Part shown: positions 1 through 33,640 of the stretch, piece after piece | Numbering within the stretch: position 1 is the first letter of the stretch | Layout: each line of letters begins with the position of its first letter | NCBI GenBank assembly: GCA_036171035.1 | Contig: JAVHQG010000317.1 | Coordinates: forward strand, 1 to 33,929 | Direction: 5' to 3' | Length of the DNA: 33,929 nucleotides | Source of the DNA: Bacteroidales bacterium | GTDB taxonomy: Bacteria > Bacteroidota > Bacteroidia > Bacteroidales > GWF2-35-48 | Position numbers and translations under genes: made by a program | Notes under the pieces: generated by a model | Seen by the model: only the letters and a program-made list of their open reading frames with translations | Told to the model about the DNA's origin: nothing | Databases searched by the model: none

Positions 1-37
1 TTATTTTAATTATCTGGTTGTCAGATGTTATTTTTTA

Positions 38-162
38 GCTTGGCGGTAACGGACGGTCCTCGTGCAGGCTTACGTTTGGAGTACATTAGACCTATGCGCA
101 TAGGCGAAGCCTTAGCGTTTAAATAAGCGGAAAATGAAGCTTGCACGATGTTGCCAACTGGC
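38..162 (-). mobile_element. attC-like cassette recombination site (complete, imperfect palindrome)
   Basis: Read in gene direction: GCCAGTTGGCAAC...GTTACCGCCAAGC. A 12-bp stem (60-71 TCGTGCAGGCTT with 137-148 AAGCTTGCACGA) has one G.T pair on the + strand, and there is a central perfect palindrome CCTATGCGCATAGG (91-104). Lies about 100 nt downstream of the antitoxin stop. Confidence 0.65.
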
Positions 163-261
163 GCTTTGTAATCGACTATTTGAATTTTATAAAAAGTAGC
201 AATATGTAGTCTTAAAAACTCAACTACATAATTGGAGATTAAATTATCAGTATTGAATATT

Positions 262-537
262 TTACAGGGTAATCTGAATCCTATTATCAGTATAATTATG
301 AATTAAAACACTTATTAGAGATTGATAAGAAAGTCCCACTTCTATAGCCTTAACTTTTAATTTTACAATTTCCTTTTCAGTTAATTTAATACTTATTTGT
401 TTTGTTCTAGCAAAAGTATTCAGAGCTGACTTTTTCCCAATAAGAATTTCGTCCTTCGCATCTTTACTTTTCTTAAGCAACCCTGTTTCAAACGCTGATA
501 ATATTTCATTTTCTTCTTCAGAATATTTCTTTTTCAT
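262..537 (-). CDS. CopG/BrnA-like antitoxin (ribbon-helix-helix C-terminus)
   Basis: 91 aa. C-terminal ISIKL...LKVKAIEVGLSYQSLISVLIH resembles RHH antitoxins (G-x-x-YQ-S/T-LI). Starts 2 nt after the toxin stop. Confidence 0.8.
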   Translation of the reverse strand: MKKKYSEEENEILSAFETGLLKKSKDAKDEILIGKKSALNTFARTKQISIKLTEKEIVKLKVKAIEVGLSYQSLISVLIHNYTDNRIQITL

Positions 538-539
538 AA

Positions 540-815
540 TTAATCCTCCTTTAAATATTTTTTTGTTGCTTTTCTACTTGGTATAATAGTTTTTAAAAAA
601 AATTCCGTTTCTGTTTCAATAAATGGAATAAGATAAATATACTCATTATAACTAACTGCATAAATCTTTTGTCCTGGATATTTGCTCTGATTCGGATGTT
701 CATAAACATCAATAATTGAATCATTACAAATTGCTAAAACAATTTCTTCAAAAGAAATATTTCGGGTTTTCTTTAACTCTTCATTTTTATCAGTATTCCA
801 ATTATAGTATTTCAT
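540..815 (-). CDS. BrnT-like type II toxin (putative ribonuclease)
   Basis: 91 aa. N-terminal W-N-x-x-K-N-x-x-L-K-x-x-R-x-I-S-F-E-E and C-terminal LKTIIPSRKATK. Toxin-before-antitoxin order as in brnTA. Confidence 0.8.
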   Translation of the reverse strand: MKYYNWNTDKNEELKKTRNISFEEIVLAICNDSIIDVYEHPNQSKYPGQKIYAVSYNEYIYLIPFIETETEFFLKTIIPSRKATKKYLKED

Positions 816-857
816 CTATTATGTTATTACTAACATTTCTCACTTCATTTTTATATT

Positions 858-904
858 AATCCCGAAGGGATTTAATTTGAATAACCACTGGTAAAACCAG
901 TGGT
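858..904. repeat. REP-like tandem hairpins
   Basis: AATCCC-GAA-GGGATT (858-872) and ACCACTGGT-AAA-ACCAGTGGT (884-904): both perfect stems with 3-nt loops, GC-rich against an AT-rich background. Confidence 0.55.
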
Positions 905-941
905 ACAAAACGCAAGATATAACTAGTTCTTGTAAGAAAAC

Positions 942-1042
942 TCAGTGTCAGATAAGAAAATGTCAAGAATGAGGCTTTTGTAAATGACTGTTTTCAAAAC
1001 GAGAGTAACGAAATTATTGGCGTTTTCTTGCTGACACTAAAT
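942..1042 (-). mobile_element. MITE-like small element, short copy
   Basis: Imperfect terminal inverted repeats AGTGTCAGATAAGAAAATG (944-962) and CGTTTTCTTGCTGACACT (1021-1038). Blocks 1006-1042 (37 nt) and 975-1000 (26 nt) are exact reverse complements of 33421-33457 and 33502-33527. Confidence 0.7.
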
Positions 1043-1048
1043 AGAATA

Positions 1049-1082
1049 CAAATTTAATAGAATTTCAGCATAAAAAAGCAAA
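1049..1082 (-). promoter_or_regulatory. Bacteroidota sigma-A-type promoter facing the TA pair
   Basis: Minus strand TTTG (1079-1082), N22, TAAATTTG (1049-1056). Spacer slightly longer than the usual 19-21 nt. Confidence 0.45.
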
Positions 1083-1254
1083 CTTTTTCTATTATTAATC
1101 CAATAAAACTATTGTCATTCATTAAACAGATTTGTATTACATAATTTTTTTTGCCTATTATATTGATACTTTATATATATGGCTGTTTATCTACAAGTTA
1201 TATCTAATATTTTTCAGTAATTATTAAAATATCAAAAGAATTGTGCTACACGCA

Positions 1255-1269
1255 ATGTTATGCACTGGC
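1255..1269 (-). mobile_element. attC-like proximal half-site (R''-type box), apparently truncated site
   Basis: Minus strand GCCAGTGCATAACAT, 11/15 identical and in register with GCCAGTTGGCAACAT at 148-162. Lies 34 nt after the ATPase stop. No partner stem found by eye. Confidence 0.6.
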
Positions 1270-1303
1270 AATTTTCAATAACATTATTATTATTAATTTG
1301 TAT

Positions 1304-2506
1304 TTACTTTAATAACCAATCAACAACATTTAATTTTTGAATGCCATCAATATTTGTATTATCAAAATCCATTGTTAAGAGATATTTTGGATAATTGTCT
1401 TTTATATTTTTAAATGCCGAAATCTCTCTTTTGAATGTATTTTCGTCATTAACAGTAAAGGCAACCTGATAATATTCACGTTCATTATTTGTCTTTTGGA
1501 CTACAAAGTCAATCTCTTTATCATTGTGTTTCCCGACATAAACCTTACCTCCACGTCTATATAATTCAAAATAGATAACGTTTTCAAGCTTATGCCCTAA
1601 ATCTGTATCGTATTTATTTGTTGTATTAATATTTCTTAAACCTAAATCTACAACATAATATTTTTCATTTGTTGATAGTAATTCTCTGCCCTTTATGTCA
1701 TAGCGTGGAGCTGCATACAGAATATATGATTGGGTAAAATAATCTAAATATTTAATTATCGTGTTATGTGATAGTTTCTTTTGTGATTTCTTATTAAGTT
1801 CTGCTGCAATATTAGTTGGAGAAACATAAGACCCTACAGAATCAAATAAAAAGCTAATAATACGATGAAGATTGGAAATATTTCTCAATTTATATCGTTG
1901 AGCAATGTCTTTAATAACAACTGTGTCATAAATGGATTGAAGATAATCCTTAACAAGTTCTTCATTTTTTTGAGAAAGAGTTACAGCTTCAGGAAAACTA
2001 CTCTCATTGATATATTTGCGAAAAAGGCGATCTGTGTTTTTTTCTTTTTTATTAGCTAAAACATATTCTTTAAATGAATATGGTTGAATATTAATTGCAA
2101 TATATCTACCTGTCAAAAGTGTAGCTAACTCGCTTGATAATAAAAATGCATTAGAACCGGTTATGTACAAATCAATATTCTTTTTCCTAAATAAACTATT
2201 AATGAGTTTTTCAAAATCATTAATCAGTTGTACTTCATCTATAAAGATATAATATTTTTTGCTGGTTTTTACTTTTTTTATGATTTCATCATATAATGCA
2301 GTCCAGCTAGTAAAATTTATGTTTTCTCGCTCCTCAAAATTTAGAAAAATTATATTTCTTGAAGAAATGCCATCAGATAATAATTCAGCTTTAAAGGCTT
2401 CTAAAAGTGTTGATTTTCCACTCCTTCTTATTCCAGTAATGACTTTTATTAAGTTTTGGTTTTTGAGTTGCCTTAATTTGTTTAAATAGATTTCTCGCTG
2501 TATCAT
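1304..2506 (-). CDS. AAA_14-family ATPase with C-terminal DUF4143 domain
   Basis: Walker A GIRRSGKS, Walker B FIDEVQ, ITGSNAFLLSSELATLLTGRY, KYYVVDLGLR, LENVIYFEL, EIDFV...YYQV. Confidence 0.9.
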   Translation of the reverse strand: MIQREIYLNKLRQLKNQNLIKVITGIRRSGKSTLLEAFKAELLSDGISSRNIIFLNFEERENINFTSWTALYDEIIKKVKTSKKYYIFIDEVQLINDFEKLINSLFRKKNIDLYITGSNAFLLSSELATLLTGRYIAINIQPYSFKEYVLANKKEKNTDRLFRKYINESSFPEAVTLSQKNEELVKDYLQSIYDTVVIKDIAQRYKLRNISNLHRIISFLFDSVGSYVSPTNIAAELNKKSQKKLSHNTIIKYLDYFTQSYILYAAPRYDIKGRELLSTNEKYYVVDLGLRNINTTNKYDTDLGHKLENVIYFELYRRGGKVYVGKHNDKEIDFVVQKTNNEREYYQVAFTVNDENTFKREISAFKNIKDNYPKYLLTMDFDNTNIDGIQKLNVVDWLLK

Positions 2507-2519
2507 AATTTTTTTTCGA

Positions 2520-2550
2520 CAAAGTTAATTATTATTGACGAAAAATCAAA
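2520..2550 (-). promoter_or_regulatory. Bacteroidota sigma-A-type promoter of the ATPase gene
   Basis: Minus strand TTTG (2547-2550), N19, TAACTTTG (2520-2527), just upstream of the ATG at 2506. Confidence 0.7.
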
Positions 2551-2580
2551 TTTTTATATATTTTGGTCATTATGGGATTT

Positions 2581-2593
2581 GCTTGTGCATAAC
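2581..2593 (-). mobile_element. R'-type core box, putative cassette entry junction
   Basis: Minus strand GTTATGCACAAGC, same frame as GTTACCGCCAAGC at 38-50 (9/13 identical). Its first 9 nt are the exact inverted repeat of 1257-1265. Confidence 0.6.
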
Positions 2594-2639
2594 TAATGGG
2601 TATGTTCATTTGAAGAAATTGTATTTTTTTACAAAAACA

Positions 2640-2669
2640 AAAAAGGCTATCCGAAAGGATAGCCTTTTT
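2640..2669 (-). terminator. Rho-independent terminator (potentially bidirectional)
   Basis: AAAAAGGCTATCC-GAAA-GGATAGCCTTTTT perfect stem, 18 nt downstream of the lipoprotein stop. Confidence 0.9.
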
Positions 2670-2687
2670 ACGTAAAGCTTTGAAAGC

Positions 2688-3413
2688 TTATTTTTTCATT
2701 TCAAATGTGTATGTAATATCATTTGAAGGAGAATCTGAATCAGTTCCGGTACTTGTTGATGATGTGCTTCCTGAAGTCCATGTGTTTGTTGAAGTTGAAC
2801 TACCAGTGCTTGAATTTATCCTTTTAAGGGTAAGTTCTTTATGAGAAAGTCTGTAAACATAATAGTCACCTGATTTGAAGAAAGAACCATTAGGGATTGT
2901 AACAACCAATTGATCTTTATGTTTGTTTGATTCTGTCCACATCCAATTTCCAACACCTGTATTTGTTCCATCTACTTTCCACGTAGTAATAGATGTACTT
3001 GTACCAGATTTGTCATTTAGAATTCCTTTTTCAGTAAATGCAATTGCTCCATGTTCCTGAAATTCGATTTCATGTGAAGCACTTGAATAAACTGATGTGT
3101 CACCAGTTGTTGTTGTTGTGCTACCTGATGTTTGACTCCTTACCCAACTTTCAGTATAAGTAGAACCATCAAATTTATAGGTCCATGTTCTCTTATCTGC
3201 AGAAGAAGTTGTTGTAGATCCTGAAGTGCTTGTTGAAGTTGTTGATGTAACTGATGTGCCTTCAACTGTTTTCAAAGCCCATTTTTGCATTAATCTGCCA
3301 TCTCTTGAACGTAAAGAAAGAAATGGATCTTTTTCGCCTTTTTTACAACCACTGAAAAAAGGGACAACTGTGGCAATTGCCAACAACATAATAACTACTT
3401 TCATTTTTCTCAT
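2688..3413 (-). CDS. Ser/Thr-rich putative lipoprotein of unknown function
   Basis: ATG at 3413 gives MRKMKVVIMLLAIATVVPFFSG-C (signal peptidase II pattern) followed by KKGEKDPFLSLRSR. Three TSGST-containing low-complexity stretches. Confidence 0.8.
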   Translation of the reverse strand: MRKMKVVIMLLAIATVVPFFSGCKKGEKDPFLSLRSRDGRLMQKWALKTVEGTSVTSTTSTSTSGSTTTSSADKRTWTYKFDGSTYTESWVRSQTSGSTTTTTGDTSVYSSASHEIEFQEHGAIAFTEKGILNDKSGTSTSITTWKVDGTNTGVGNWMWTESNKHKDQLVVTIPNGSFFKSGDYYVYRLSHKELTLKRINSSTGSSTSTNTWTSGSTSSTSTGTDSDSPSNDITYTFEMKK

Positions 3414-3476
3414 AAAACTAAATTTTAAATTAAACAATAAATTACATATTAAATTTCTGTAAGACTAAATTTGTGC

Positions 3477-3509
3477 CAAAATTATATAAATTTTTTATAT
3501 TTTTACAAA
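3477..3509 (-). promoter_or_regulatory. Bacteroidota sigma-A-type promoter of the lipoprotein gene
   Basis: Minus strand TTTG (3506-3509), N21, TAATTTTG (3477-3484). Confidence 0.55.
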
Positions 3510-3686
3510 AAAAAATGGAAAATGCCGTTGAAACACATGTTTACAATTAATGATCAGTATTTAATATATCAACAACATTTACAATTTTGAAATAACACCA
3601 AGCATACACATAACATACAAAACACCCTTATTCGATTTGTAAAAATATTTTTTTGTAATTTTCTATCCACTTAAAAAAATGAAAAA

Positions 3687-4142
3687 ATGAAGGAATTTAA
3701 TACTTTTCAAGACATACTTGATTTTGCAATAGACAACGAACAGGAAGCGGTTGAGTTTTATACAAAACTTGCAGAAATGGCAAAATCCGATGAGATGAAA
3801 AAAATCTTTACGGAATATGCCGGAGAAGAAATTTCACATAAAGCTAAACTTATTAATATTAAAGAAAGTGGGATAATTACTGTGTCAACAGAAAAAGTAA
3901 CAGATCTAAAAATTGCAGATTATTTGGTAACTACAAAAGCTTCATCAGATATTAGTTATCAGGATGCACTGATTTTGGCTATGAGTAAAGAAAAAGCAGC
4001 ATTTAAACTTTACACTGCATTGGCTAATCGCACTGATTCTAATGATTTAAAAAATCTTTTTCTATCATTAGCATCTGAAGAAAGTAAGCATAAACTGCAA
4101 TTTGAAATAGAATTTGATGAATATGTTTTACGTGAGAATTAG
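3687..4142 (+). CDS. Rubrerythrin/ferritin-like diiron protein (no rubredoxin domain)
   Basis: Two E-x6-Y...EExxH repeats: EQEAVEFY...EEISH and EKAAFKLY...EESKH. Confidence 0.9.
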   Translation: MKEFNTFQDILDFAIDNEQEAVEFYTKLAEMAKSDEMKKIFTEYAGEEISHKAKLINIKESGIITVSTEKVTDLKIADYLVTTKASSDISYQDALILAMSKEKAAFKLYTALANRTDSNDLKNLFLSLASEESKHKLQFEIEFDEYVLREN

Positions 4143-33420: not shown

Positions 33421-33640
33421 ATTTAGTGTCAGCAAGAAAACGCCAATAATTTCGTTAAACAACCCACAAGCTCGCTCATACTGTTACTAGCAGTATGCCG
33501 GGTTTTGAAAACAGTCATTTACAAAAGTAAACTCCTTAATTTCAAAACATCGAAAGCCTTGAACACGAACATTATTCACTAATATTTTATTTTTTATGTG
33601 TTCATGAGATCGCTTCGCTAAATTATGAATCAGACACTGA
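33421..33640 (+). mobile_element. MITE-like small element, long copy
   Basis: Begins ATTTAGTGTCAGCAAGAAAACG and ends ATCAGACACTGA (11/12 match to the reverse complement of 942-953). Shares exact 37-nt and 26-nt blocks with 942-1042. Confidence 0.7.

Follow-up and report, generated by a model that had tools for sequence, protein, structure and literature searches.

Integrons, which serve to capture genes, are well known from Proteobacteria. In sedentary chromosomal integrons, such as those formed by the Vibrio cholerae repeats, mostly promoterless genes stand in long co-oriented arrays, each followed by a ~120-nt palindrome of one family (the attC site) with AAC and GTT at its ends; the start of a cassette pairs with the box at its own end, and toxin–antitoxin (TA) pairs and defence genes are part of the cargo. 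Within one chromosomal array, conserved attC sites are usual. The same traits recur in a family of hairpin repeats represented in a 33,929-nt contig of a Bacteroidales bacterium (GenBank JAVHQG010000317.1, assembly GCA_036171035.1; contig C317 of genome G000, which has 2.88 Mb in 384 contigs and 33.8% G+C). This whole contig is referred to as the window, and its positions 38–2613, which hold an ATPase gene and a BrnT/BrnA-like TA pair, are probably the eroded margin of an integron-type gene-cassette array in the chromosome. Unlike in the Vibrio cholerae-type arrays, the hosts are uncultured Bacteroidota, and no integron integrase (IntI) was found in them. The verdict of the analysis is a new attC-like family and, in the window, a remnant of the type known as CALIN (attC-site clusters in which an integron integrase is missing) in uncultured Bacteroidia, for which no matching integrase was found in the genomes and loci searched.

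Criteria for attC sites include, in passages of the paper that also defines CALIN, conserved AAC and GTT triplets and a loop of 20–100 nt; CALIN are defined there as two or more attC sites that share a strand, lie under 4 kb from each other and have no integrase in their neighbourhood (PMC4889954). Integrons are listed for Bacteroidota in parts of two publications (PMC8618304, PMC9668308), and from complete Bacteroidetes genomes, according to an excerpt of a third, only In0 and one complete integron, that of Salinibacter ruber, had been reported by 2022 (PMC9024848). A description of this repeat or of attC arrays in Bacteroidia was not found in the literature; supplements, which lay outside the search, may list such arrays.

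The site at 162–38 of the window is one member of a genuine family of imperfect palindromes ~120 nt long. In a DNA search of relatives, window positions 53–161 were 93% identical to positions 139–245 of contig C114 in the congeneric genome G002, whereas the surrounding coding DNA reached only 75–83%, and a weaker copy was detected on contig C169 of G001; a motif scan of the own genome added one copy each on C47 and C142 and two on C247. Seven aligned copies share the 5' consensus ...YTAAC-A-YCG..., the centre ...AACGCTAG...ATGCGNGTAGGTCTAAGGT...AAAC... and the 3' consensus ...RACC-GTTAG..., and vary in the flanking stems; the conserved centre of the attC-like site reads ...AACGCTAG...ATGCGCGTAGGTCTAAGGT.... 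From these seven copies (own genome, G001, G002) a covariance model, R1, was built, which found seven copies in the own genome at E ≤ 1e-4 (10 at E ≤ 1) and, among 61 genomes of the order, copies in six: G000 (7), G001 (2), G002 (53, a minimum), G011 (2), G044 (5) and G047 (1). Pattern scans retrieved 52 stretches from public genome contigs, nearly all in metagenome-assembled genome (MAG) records of uncultured Bacteroidetes, Bacteroidales or Bacteroidia, and at least 177 from metagenome contigs; nhmmer placed 308 family matches in 196 of 198 public loci. The family is spread over at least 11 genomes from several families of the order, and single copies on long contigs also occur. A match in a Bdellovibrionaceae record from the scan of public genomes was not confirmed by R1. 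An Rfam scan of positions 1–4000 (E ≤ 1) gave no family at 38–164 and only weak sub-threshold matches elsewhere, and blastn-short of positions 1–300 against the own genome returned no copies among the first 80 matches listed, the family being too divergent for this method.

The unit of the arrays is a gene or gene pair followed by the imperfect palindrome in the role of attC. The site itself runs from a 5' box ending in TAAC through a first arm, the conserved centre, a complementary second arm and a 5-nt spacer to a 3' box starting with GTTA. Of the 308 family matches, 272 have AAC and 282 have GTT in the expected position, the others being cut off or without the triplet; in the window copy the triplets lie at 152–150 and 50–48, respectively. 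The second stem (11 pairs) is kept by compensatory change: 73.7% of the cells are paired compared with 58.6% in shuffles, none of 500 of which reaches this value; 71 cells are changed on both sides compared with 31.7 in shuffles, nine pairs show such changes, and slid controls pair in 20–45%. Between the two helices lies a 3-by-2-nt internal loop, and the loop of ~60 nt is conserved in sequence, as in single-species arrays. In the predicted fold of the window copy, the two boxes are paired with each other, as are the two arms. Every sequence-level attC criterion that could be tested is found in the element: the triplets, two stems with unpaired bases, the loop size, the boundary rule and the place after co-oriented open reading frames (ORFs).

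The boundary rule, i.e. complementarity between the start of a cassette and the box at its own end, is the decisive signature of integrons, and it holds for the repeat family. It was assessed by comparing the six bases after GTT of one site with the six bases before AAC of the next. In the loci of the own genome and G002, 15 of 21 adjacent pairs were complementary at all six positions, as against one of 27 sites compared with themselves and 4.3% of 903 other pairs. In the 198 public loci (308 element matches), 62 of 71 adjacent distinct pairs were fully complementary and five more at five of six positions, as against 10 of 198 for sites compared with themselves and 2.3% of all 16,129 combinations. 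This pairing spans 200–9000 nt of unrelated cargo. Across the 71 pairs, agreement is 92–100% at positions 1–9, 37% at position 10, 1% at position 11 and 55–75% at positions 12–14, a pattern of 9 bp, a fixed mismatch and then a few more pairs; AA/TG is the commonest dinucleotide pair at positions 10–11 (24 of 71), and the mismatched position 11 is a difference from the Vibrio cholerae-type arrays. A single interrupted helix has GTTA-N4-C-AA-GC on one side and the complement of GC-CA-G-N4-TAAC on the other, which explains the two frames that the initial annotation of this locus had noticed from the sequence alone.

In the window, the ATPase cassette follows this pattern exactly: GTTATGCAC-AA-GCAA faces GTTATGCAC-TG-GCAA, with nine of nine positions in agreement, the AA/TG mismatch of the family and then four of four. 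The 9-mers at the two ends of the ATPase gene are indeed complementary, as had been claimed, 2593–2581 pairing with 1269–1257 over 9 nt. The proposed end-to-end complementarity of the N4 fillers could be followed in the family and in the ATPase cassette; the TA cassette has lost the start on which it would be seen. The core pair of the ATPase cassette also frames unrelated cargo in a metagenome cassette (L140). All four motifs named in the initial annotation stand on the minus strand where it had placed them (Table 1); they are real, yet by themselves they are weak evidence because the frame GTTA-N4-CAAGC is not enriched, occurring in the own genome at chance frequency (20 copies, ~19 expected from base composition). 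GCCAGT-N4-AACAT occurs twice in 2.88 Mb (both strands), and both copies lie inside the window, so that the genome scan proposed at the outset yielded no further copies of this motif; the frames recur in the wider repeat family, where, of 127 distinct 3' boxes, 14 have GTTA-N4-CAAGC and 61 have GTTA-N4-CAA, and of 127 distinct 5' boxes, 15 have GCCAG-N4-TAAC. GTTATGCAC has 22 copies in the own genome, both strands counted, and the chance of meeting it in the ~90-nt leader of a gene whose 3' flank has its complement is estimated at ~4e-4.

The copies form arrays. In the G002 loci and on the own contig C247, all copies of a contig lie on one strand, and maps of 12 loci show that ORFs between copies are mostly co-oriented with them and stop 1–15 nt before a copy; in G002, ORFs often start 30–150 nt past the preceding copy, and the copies occur in single-strand runs on short contigs, and the ends of many of these contigs fall within a copy. 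C247 has the order [961-aa ORF]-copy-[DUF6922 + AbiEii pair]-copy, and with full sites at 2947 and 4007 it falls under the CALIN definition. Being clustered and co-oriented, with neighbours tied by complementarity, the copies do not behave as dispersed repeats of the repetitive extragenic palindromic (REP) or miniature inverted-repeat transposable element (MITE) type. Their cargo is typical of chromosomal integrons, comprising TA pairs, defence genes, proteins with type IX secretion system (T9SS) sorting domains and unknowns. Between copies or on copy-bearing contigs were found (i) TA pairs (AbiEii/DUF6922, Gp49/HTH, PIN), recognised by Pfam and in keeping with the expectation that such pairs are common cassette cargo; (ii) Zeta and Fic toxins; (iii) GmrSD and type I and type II restriction-modification genes; and (iv) caspase-like proteases. 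Many ORFs are without any Pfam match, and many of the proteins, some longer than 1300 aa, carry the T9SS sorting domain, which sets this cargo apart from that of the Vibrio cholerae-type arrays and confirms the phylum.

Several side observations concern the surroundings of the copies. Array contigs also bear a reverse transcriptase (RVT_1), an IS110-family transposase and DDE transposases (L041 330–1625; L042 3335–4360; L050 6980–8311; L122 196–1413). Recurrent sequences stand right before matched GTTA starts, e.g. tcgcaactaaatatgcacgaaacc and aaaacc.caacctattgcgggcac (left flanks of L097, L140, L125, L123, L052, L070 and L067); flanks of the tcgcaactaaatatgcacgaaacc and caacctattgcgggcac type have the appearance of 3' ends from additional attC-like subfamilies missed by the model. 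In G002:C114 a 60-nt tandem repeat directly follows the element (L015, 1–125 and 560–760), with degenerate short repeats of the GCAACAAG type upstream of it.

Cassettes of this family occur in more than one context. Among 110 cassettes cut from the public loci there were 86 pairs with an identity of 90% or more across 80% or more of the length: in five, both neighbours differ, and in five both are the same; in 61 the upstream neighbour differs and the downstream one lies outside the data, and 15 are without a flank on one or both sides. Some cassettes in differing contexts are 99% identical. For the claim that the cassettes are mobile, near-identical cassettes in different neighbourhoods speak in its favour, and against it stands that no tyrosine recombinase was found to move them. 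The central inference, integron-like cassettes, has gained independent family-level evidence in the 62 of 71 pairs, the arrays and the differing contexts.

By analogy with integrons, cassettes would most likely be moved by an enzyme acting on folded single-stranded sites. Site-specific recombination between two sites, with a crossover inside the conserved GTTA, between G and TT, would excise the cassette as a circle; in the circle, the first ~9 bases of the cassette would pair with the bases before its own AAC, re-forming a complete hairpin site, and the circle could then re-insert elsewhere.

The window shows a damaged version of this arrangement. The three genes of the remnant are co-oriented, as first described, and the TA pair is followed by a full site, also as described; the BrnT/BrnA-like pair is recognised by weak profile matches, both under curated cut-offs (NCBIfam BrnA, 21.2 bits to the antitoxin at 262–537, under the model cut-off). 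The ATPase stop codon is at 1306–1304, GCCAGTGCATAACAT begins 34 nt past it, and the full site begins 97 nt past the stop codon of the antitoxin gene. An independent hidden Markov model (HMM) of 33 family members, with the window copy left out, matches the window below E 0.01 only at 161–53 (E 1.8e-21) and 1269–1225 (E 0.0081), the next match having E 4.3; with R1 the truncated ATPase site has E 0.16, the third best match in the window. Of this site the first ~45 nt are left, with the first stem arm and a T-rich stretch besides the 5' box (GCCAGTGCATAAC); centre, second arm and 3' box are missing. The full site and the fragment lie 1.1 kb apart on the minus strand (164–38 and 1269–1225). The start predicted for the TA cassette, GTTGCCAAC, is absent from positions 1–3000. 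In the simplest history, a single deletion with one end in the middle of the ATPase site and the other in the leader of the TA cassette would have removed the start of the next cassette, and a dispersed repeat would then have been inserted in the gap; the BrnT/BrnA-like pair has kept its intact 3' site, the 3' box of which opens a cassette past the contig end. As an array, the window thus retains ATPase ends that fit the rule and a full 3' site of the TA cassette, while the ATPase site is a fragment, the TA start is missing and a repeat is inserted at 829–1035.

Table 1. Array elements, genes and motifs at the left end of the window; descending coordinates follow the minus strand
Feature	Position	Strand	Basis or remark
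Complete attC-like element	38–164	-	R1 109 bits, E 2e-24; independent HMM E 1.8e-21
5' box of complete element	162–150	-	part of 38–164
First stem arm	147–137	-	part of 38–164
Conserved centre	125–84	-	part of 38–164
Second arm	71–61	-	part of 38–164
Spacer	60–51	-	CCGT duplication compared with closest copy
3' box, opening next cassette	50–38	-	part of 38–164
Truncated attC-like site of ATPase cassette	1225–1271	-	independent HMM E 0.0081, model positions 3–46
Solo 3'-type box (R'), GTTATGCAC-AA-GC, ATPase cassette start	2581–2593	-	fits GTTA-N4-CAA frame; complements 1269–1257
Motif GTTATGCACAAGC	2593–2581	-	sequence reading
Motif GCCAGTGCATAACAT	1269–1255	-	sequence reading
Motif GCCAGTTGGCAACAT	162–148	-	sequence reading
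Motif GTTACCGCCAAGC	50–38	-	sequence reading
Cassette gene, 400-aa predicted ATPase (AAA_14 + DUF4143)	1304–2506	-	Pfam AAA_14 115 bits, DUF4143 65 bits
BrnT-like toxin gene, 91 aa	540–815	-	Pfam BrnT_toxin 27.6 bits, E 3.7e-6; gathering score 34.5 not reached
BrnA/ribbon-helix-helix-like antitoxin gene, 91 aa	262–537	-	Pfam RHH_10 19.8 bits
AAATGAACATACCCAT	2598–2613	-	15/16 bases as in 5'-box flank of G001:C169 element (AAATGAACATGCCCATAAC), compared by eye
High-copy dispersed repeat (MITE- or REP-like), inserted, outside cassette system	829–1035	.	hundreds of blastn matches in own MAG

Upstream of 2593 no hairpin element is present; what lies there is the terminator of a lipoprotein-like gene together with a stretch of 16 nt, AAATGAACATACCCAT. 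This stretch is the only motif of its type in the own genome and may be the remnant of an older site. The junction at 2593 may also be an insertion into ordinary DNA and is as such a candidate attI- or attG-type junction; insertion of cassettes into ordinary DNA, at attG sites with a GWT consensus, is described in a preprint (bioRxiv 10.1101/2022.09.11.507474). AAATGAACATACCCAT is also tied to L016 1598–1618. On the left, contigs of four runs extend 418–466 nt beyond base 1 and break inside the full element at 111–115; together with the 3' box at 50–38, which opens a further cassette, they lend weak support to the idea that the array continues beyond the window. These contigs show no joint at cassette boundaries, and they cannot reveal rare excision products. 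The third element of C247 (L021, 11122–11243) has as its 3' box GTTGCCAACAAGG, the start predicted by the full site of the window; with 2.3% of pairs matching by chance, this may be a coincidence. The nearest relative of the ATPase, 78% identical, is in G036, where R1 found no element, and no element stands beside this homologue or beside the TA homologues in G001 and G002, so that no intact version of the window sites is available from them. Matches to the dispersed repeat at 829–1035, which is also present at 33421–33527, lie mostly at contig ends, so that the fragmentation of the assembly is probably due to this repeat; since positions 828 and 1036 are joined in one contig of run X4, the insertion is polymorphic. 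A module at 975–1046 recurs at 80–90% identity in other families of the order.

A number of observations weigh against integron-type cassettes. The array of the window is incomplete, consisting of one full site, one fragment and one solo box. The fold of positions 30–175 is no more stable than that of shuffled sequences (z -0.31 and -0.44), and AAC lies ~1 nt from the first arm compared with 5 nt between the second arm and GTT, unlike in textbook attC sites and in the Vibrio cholerae-type arrays. Most of the 61 pairs with different upstream neighbours represent one ~212-nt cassette without an ORF, which leaves fewer independent events. All genomes involved are fragmented MAGs. Searches for the enzyme stand on the same side. 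The integron-integrase model TIGR02249 (cut-off 265 bits) reached its cut-off in none of 11 repeat-carrying genomes (the own one, G001, G002, G011, G044, G047 and five more). No tyrosine recombinase was found by tblastn with three recombinases, even at E 5, in 204 loci (874 kb) around ~300 copies, other than in six loci fetched for their recombinase, and PF00589 had no match in 237 representative ORFs near copies (237 of 295, 180–595 aa; the 43 longest and 15 from an element-free locus excluded). As the initial annotation had stated, no integrase is present in the window, the scans of the own genome with TIGR02249 and PF00589 being without a match on this contig; its proposal of a tyrosine recombinase that acts on the cassettes from another place in the genome found no support, neither over the TIGR02249 cut-off in the 11 genomes nor in the 874 kb near copies. 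The repeat was also absent, by R1, from all five IntI-bearing genomes tested.

The best TIGR02249 matches in the repeat-carrying genomes are XerA-like recombinases of 378–533 aa (NF040815), which are extended at the N-terminus and align to model positions ~2–183 and ~238–315, leaving out the stretch 183–240, presumably the location of the IntI-specific domain. Of 61 genomes of the order, 32 have a member of this family, the closest relatives being in genomes without the repeat, and R1 found nothing better than E 0.18 on four recombinase loci; the 476-aa protein was rejected as the array enzyme, since the family does not track the repeat and does not adjoin arrays. The XerA-like recombinases of 476–533 aa lie mostly less than 2 kb from a contig end, and the G001 copy is truncated (L024 488–1918, L022 335–1936, L023 217–1677, L025 114–1049). 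As a control, TIGR02249 exceeded its cut-off in eight of 401 genomes of the order (G324, G333, G133, G214, G252, G387, G026 and G171; 326–493 bits), with full-length matches, also on short contigs. In G324:C68 (L239), IntI at 1452–2396 (493 bits) lies beside ~54-nt CTAAC...GTTAG repeats at 67–120 and 1081–1134: these canonical integrons of the same order share the CTAAC...GTTAG site ends with the family described here, but have a full-length IntI and ~54-nt sites without a conserved centre. R1 had no match within the IntI loci, and the IntI-bearing and repeat-bearing genomes found do not overlap.

No intI with the IntI-specific domain was found beside an array, and the arrays therefore do not qualify as complete integrons. 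Because all genomes are MAGs, in which a gene beside a repeat array is easily lost, the missing integrase is not a proven absence; most likely, the array enzyme is an integrase that is unassembled, lost or divergent. The sites fit the idea of CALIN and of single attC sites lacking integron-integrases (SALIN): as in passages of the two descriptions, they share a strand, are separated by under 4 kb and have no integrase in their neighbourhood (PMC4889954; bioRxiv 10.1101/2022.09.11.507474); single copies on long contigs and a cassette/ordinary-DNA junction, as at 2593, fit in as well. CALIN are defined by matches to the attC model of IntegronFinder and the sites here by R1 and the family HMM; in addition, unlike in CALIN and SALIN, IntI was not found here in whole genomes, rather than just near the sites.

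Among the alternatives, the one that survives best is that the arrays are dead CALIN relics of an ancestral integron that lost its integrase, with nothing mobile now. No integrase was found in the genomes or loci searched, the sites of the window are truncated and interrupted, and most CALIN, as one passage of PMC4889954 has it, are without nearby intI remains; all this is as expected of relics. Nevertheless, a single family extends over at least 11 genomes and several families of the order, its boundary rule is nearly intact and 99% identical cassettes occur in different contexts, and the latter two would be hard to sustain without a working enzyme somewhere in the community, so that this explanation is unlikely, at roughly one chance in five.

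Slightly less likely still is a system with the same cassettes and hairpin sites in which the enzyme is not IntI but an Xer-type or other recombinase. Xer recombinases integrate folded single-stranded phage DNA. The failure of TIGR02249 in 11 of 11 repeat genomes, although IntI is detectable in eight of 401 of the order, the disjoint sets of IntI and repeat genomes, and a box spacing unlike that of textbook attC would all be accounted for, and recent activity is suggested by a rule intact in 62 of 71 pairs and by cassette copies 99% identical. On the other hand, no candidate was identified: the sole distinctive recombinase, the XerA-like one of 476–533 aa, occurs in 32 of 61 genomes and not beside arrays, and MAGs with short contigs can drop one gene beside a repeat array. 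Xer/dif modules of Acinetobacter plasmids and dif-integrating phages are likewise small modules, often TA pairs, with short sites and no dedicated integrase, but use 28-bp double-stranded dif-like sites in alternating orientation, whereas 120-nt hairpins in direct orientation are found here. It is doubtful, to the same degree, that the large cassette arrays of uncultured groundwater Bacteroidia, which obey the integron rule, are run by a non-IntI recombinase and form a second, independently evolved system; if true, a non-IntI hairpin-site system would stock secreted (T9SS) proteins, defence systems and TA pairs.

An ordinary intergenic element (REP/MITE-like, a terminator or a small RNA) that piles up after genes, with the boxes of the ATPase gene arising by chance, is very improbable: copies do always lie just past stop codons, attC sites do not usually have such a conserved centre, one of the two frames is no commoner than expected by chance, and the same genome holds another, far commoner dispersed repeat as well as HUH transposase genes, but such an element would leave unexplained why neighbouring copies are complementary in 62 of 71 cases and why identical cassettes turn up in different contexts, and no Rfam family matches 38–164. 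REP elements, bacterial interspersed mosaic elements (BIME) and the doublets of REP sequences (REPIN) mobilised by REP-associated tyrosine transposases (RAYT) are similar in having hairpin repeats after genes and HUH transposase genes in the genomes, but, unlike the repeat described here, do not carry an intervening gene and show no copy-to-copy pairing. HUH (Y1) transposase genes were present in all five genomes tested (G000, G001, G002, G011 and G044; 2–10 matches each), which is not specific; the best match in the own genome, G000:C276:8166–8522, carries two in-frame stops. With the dispersed repeat they may form a RAYT/REPIN-type pair.

Read as the sites of integron-type cassettes, the repeats described here make up a distinct attC-like family, from which uncultured Bacteroidia have built up arrays dozens of cassettes long. 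With no IntI in 11 repeat genomes, the question posed by CALIN, namely who moves the cassettes and how new ones arise, becomes directly testable, and R1 together with the simple boundary rule now allows these cassettes to be detected in metagenomes. Their cargo suggests a role in the variation of surface and secreted proteins and in phage defence.

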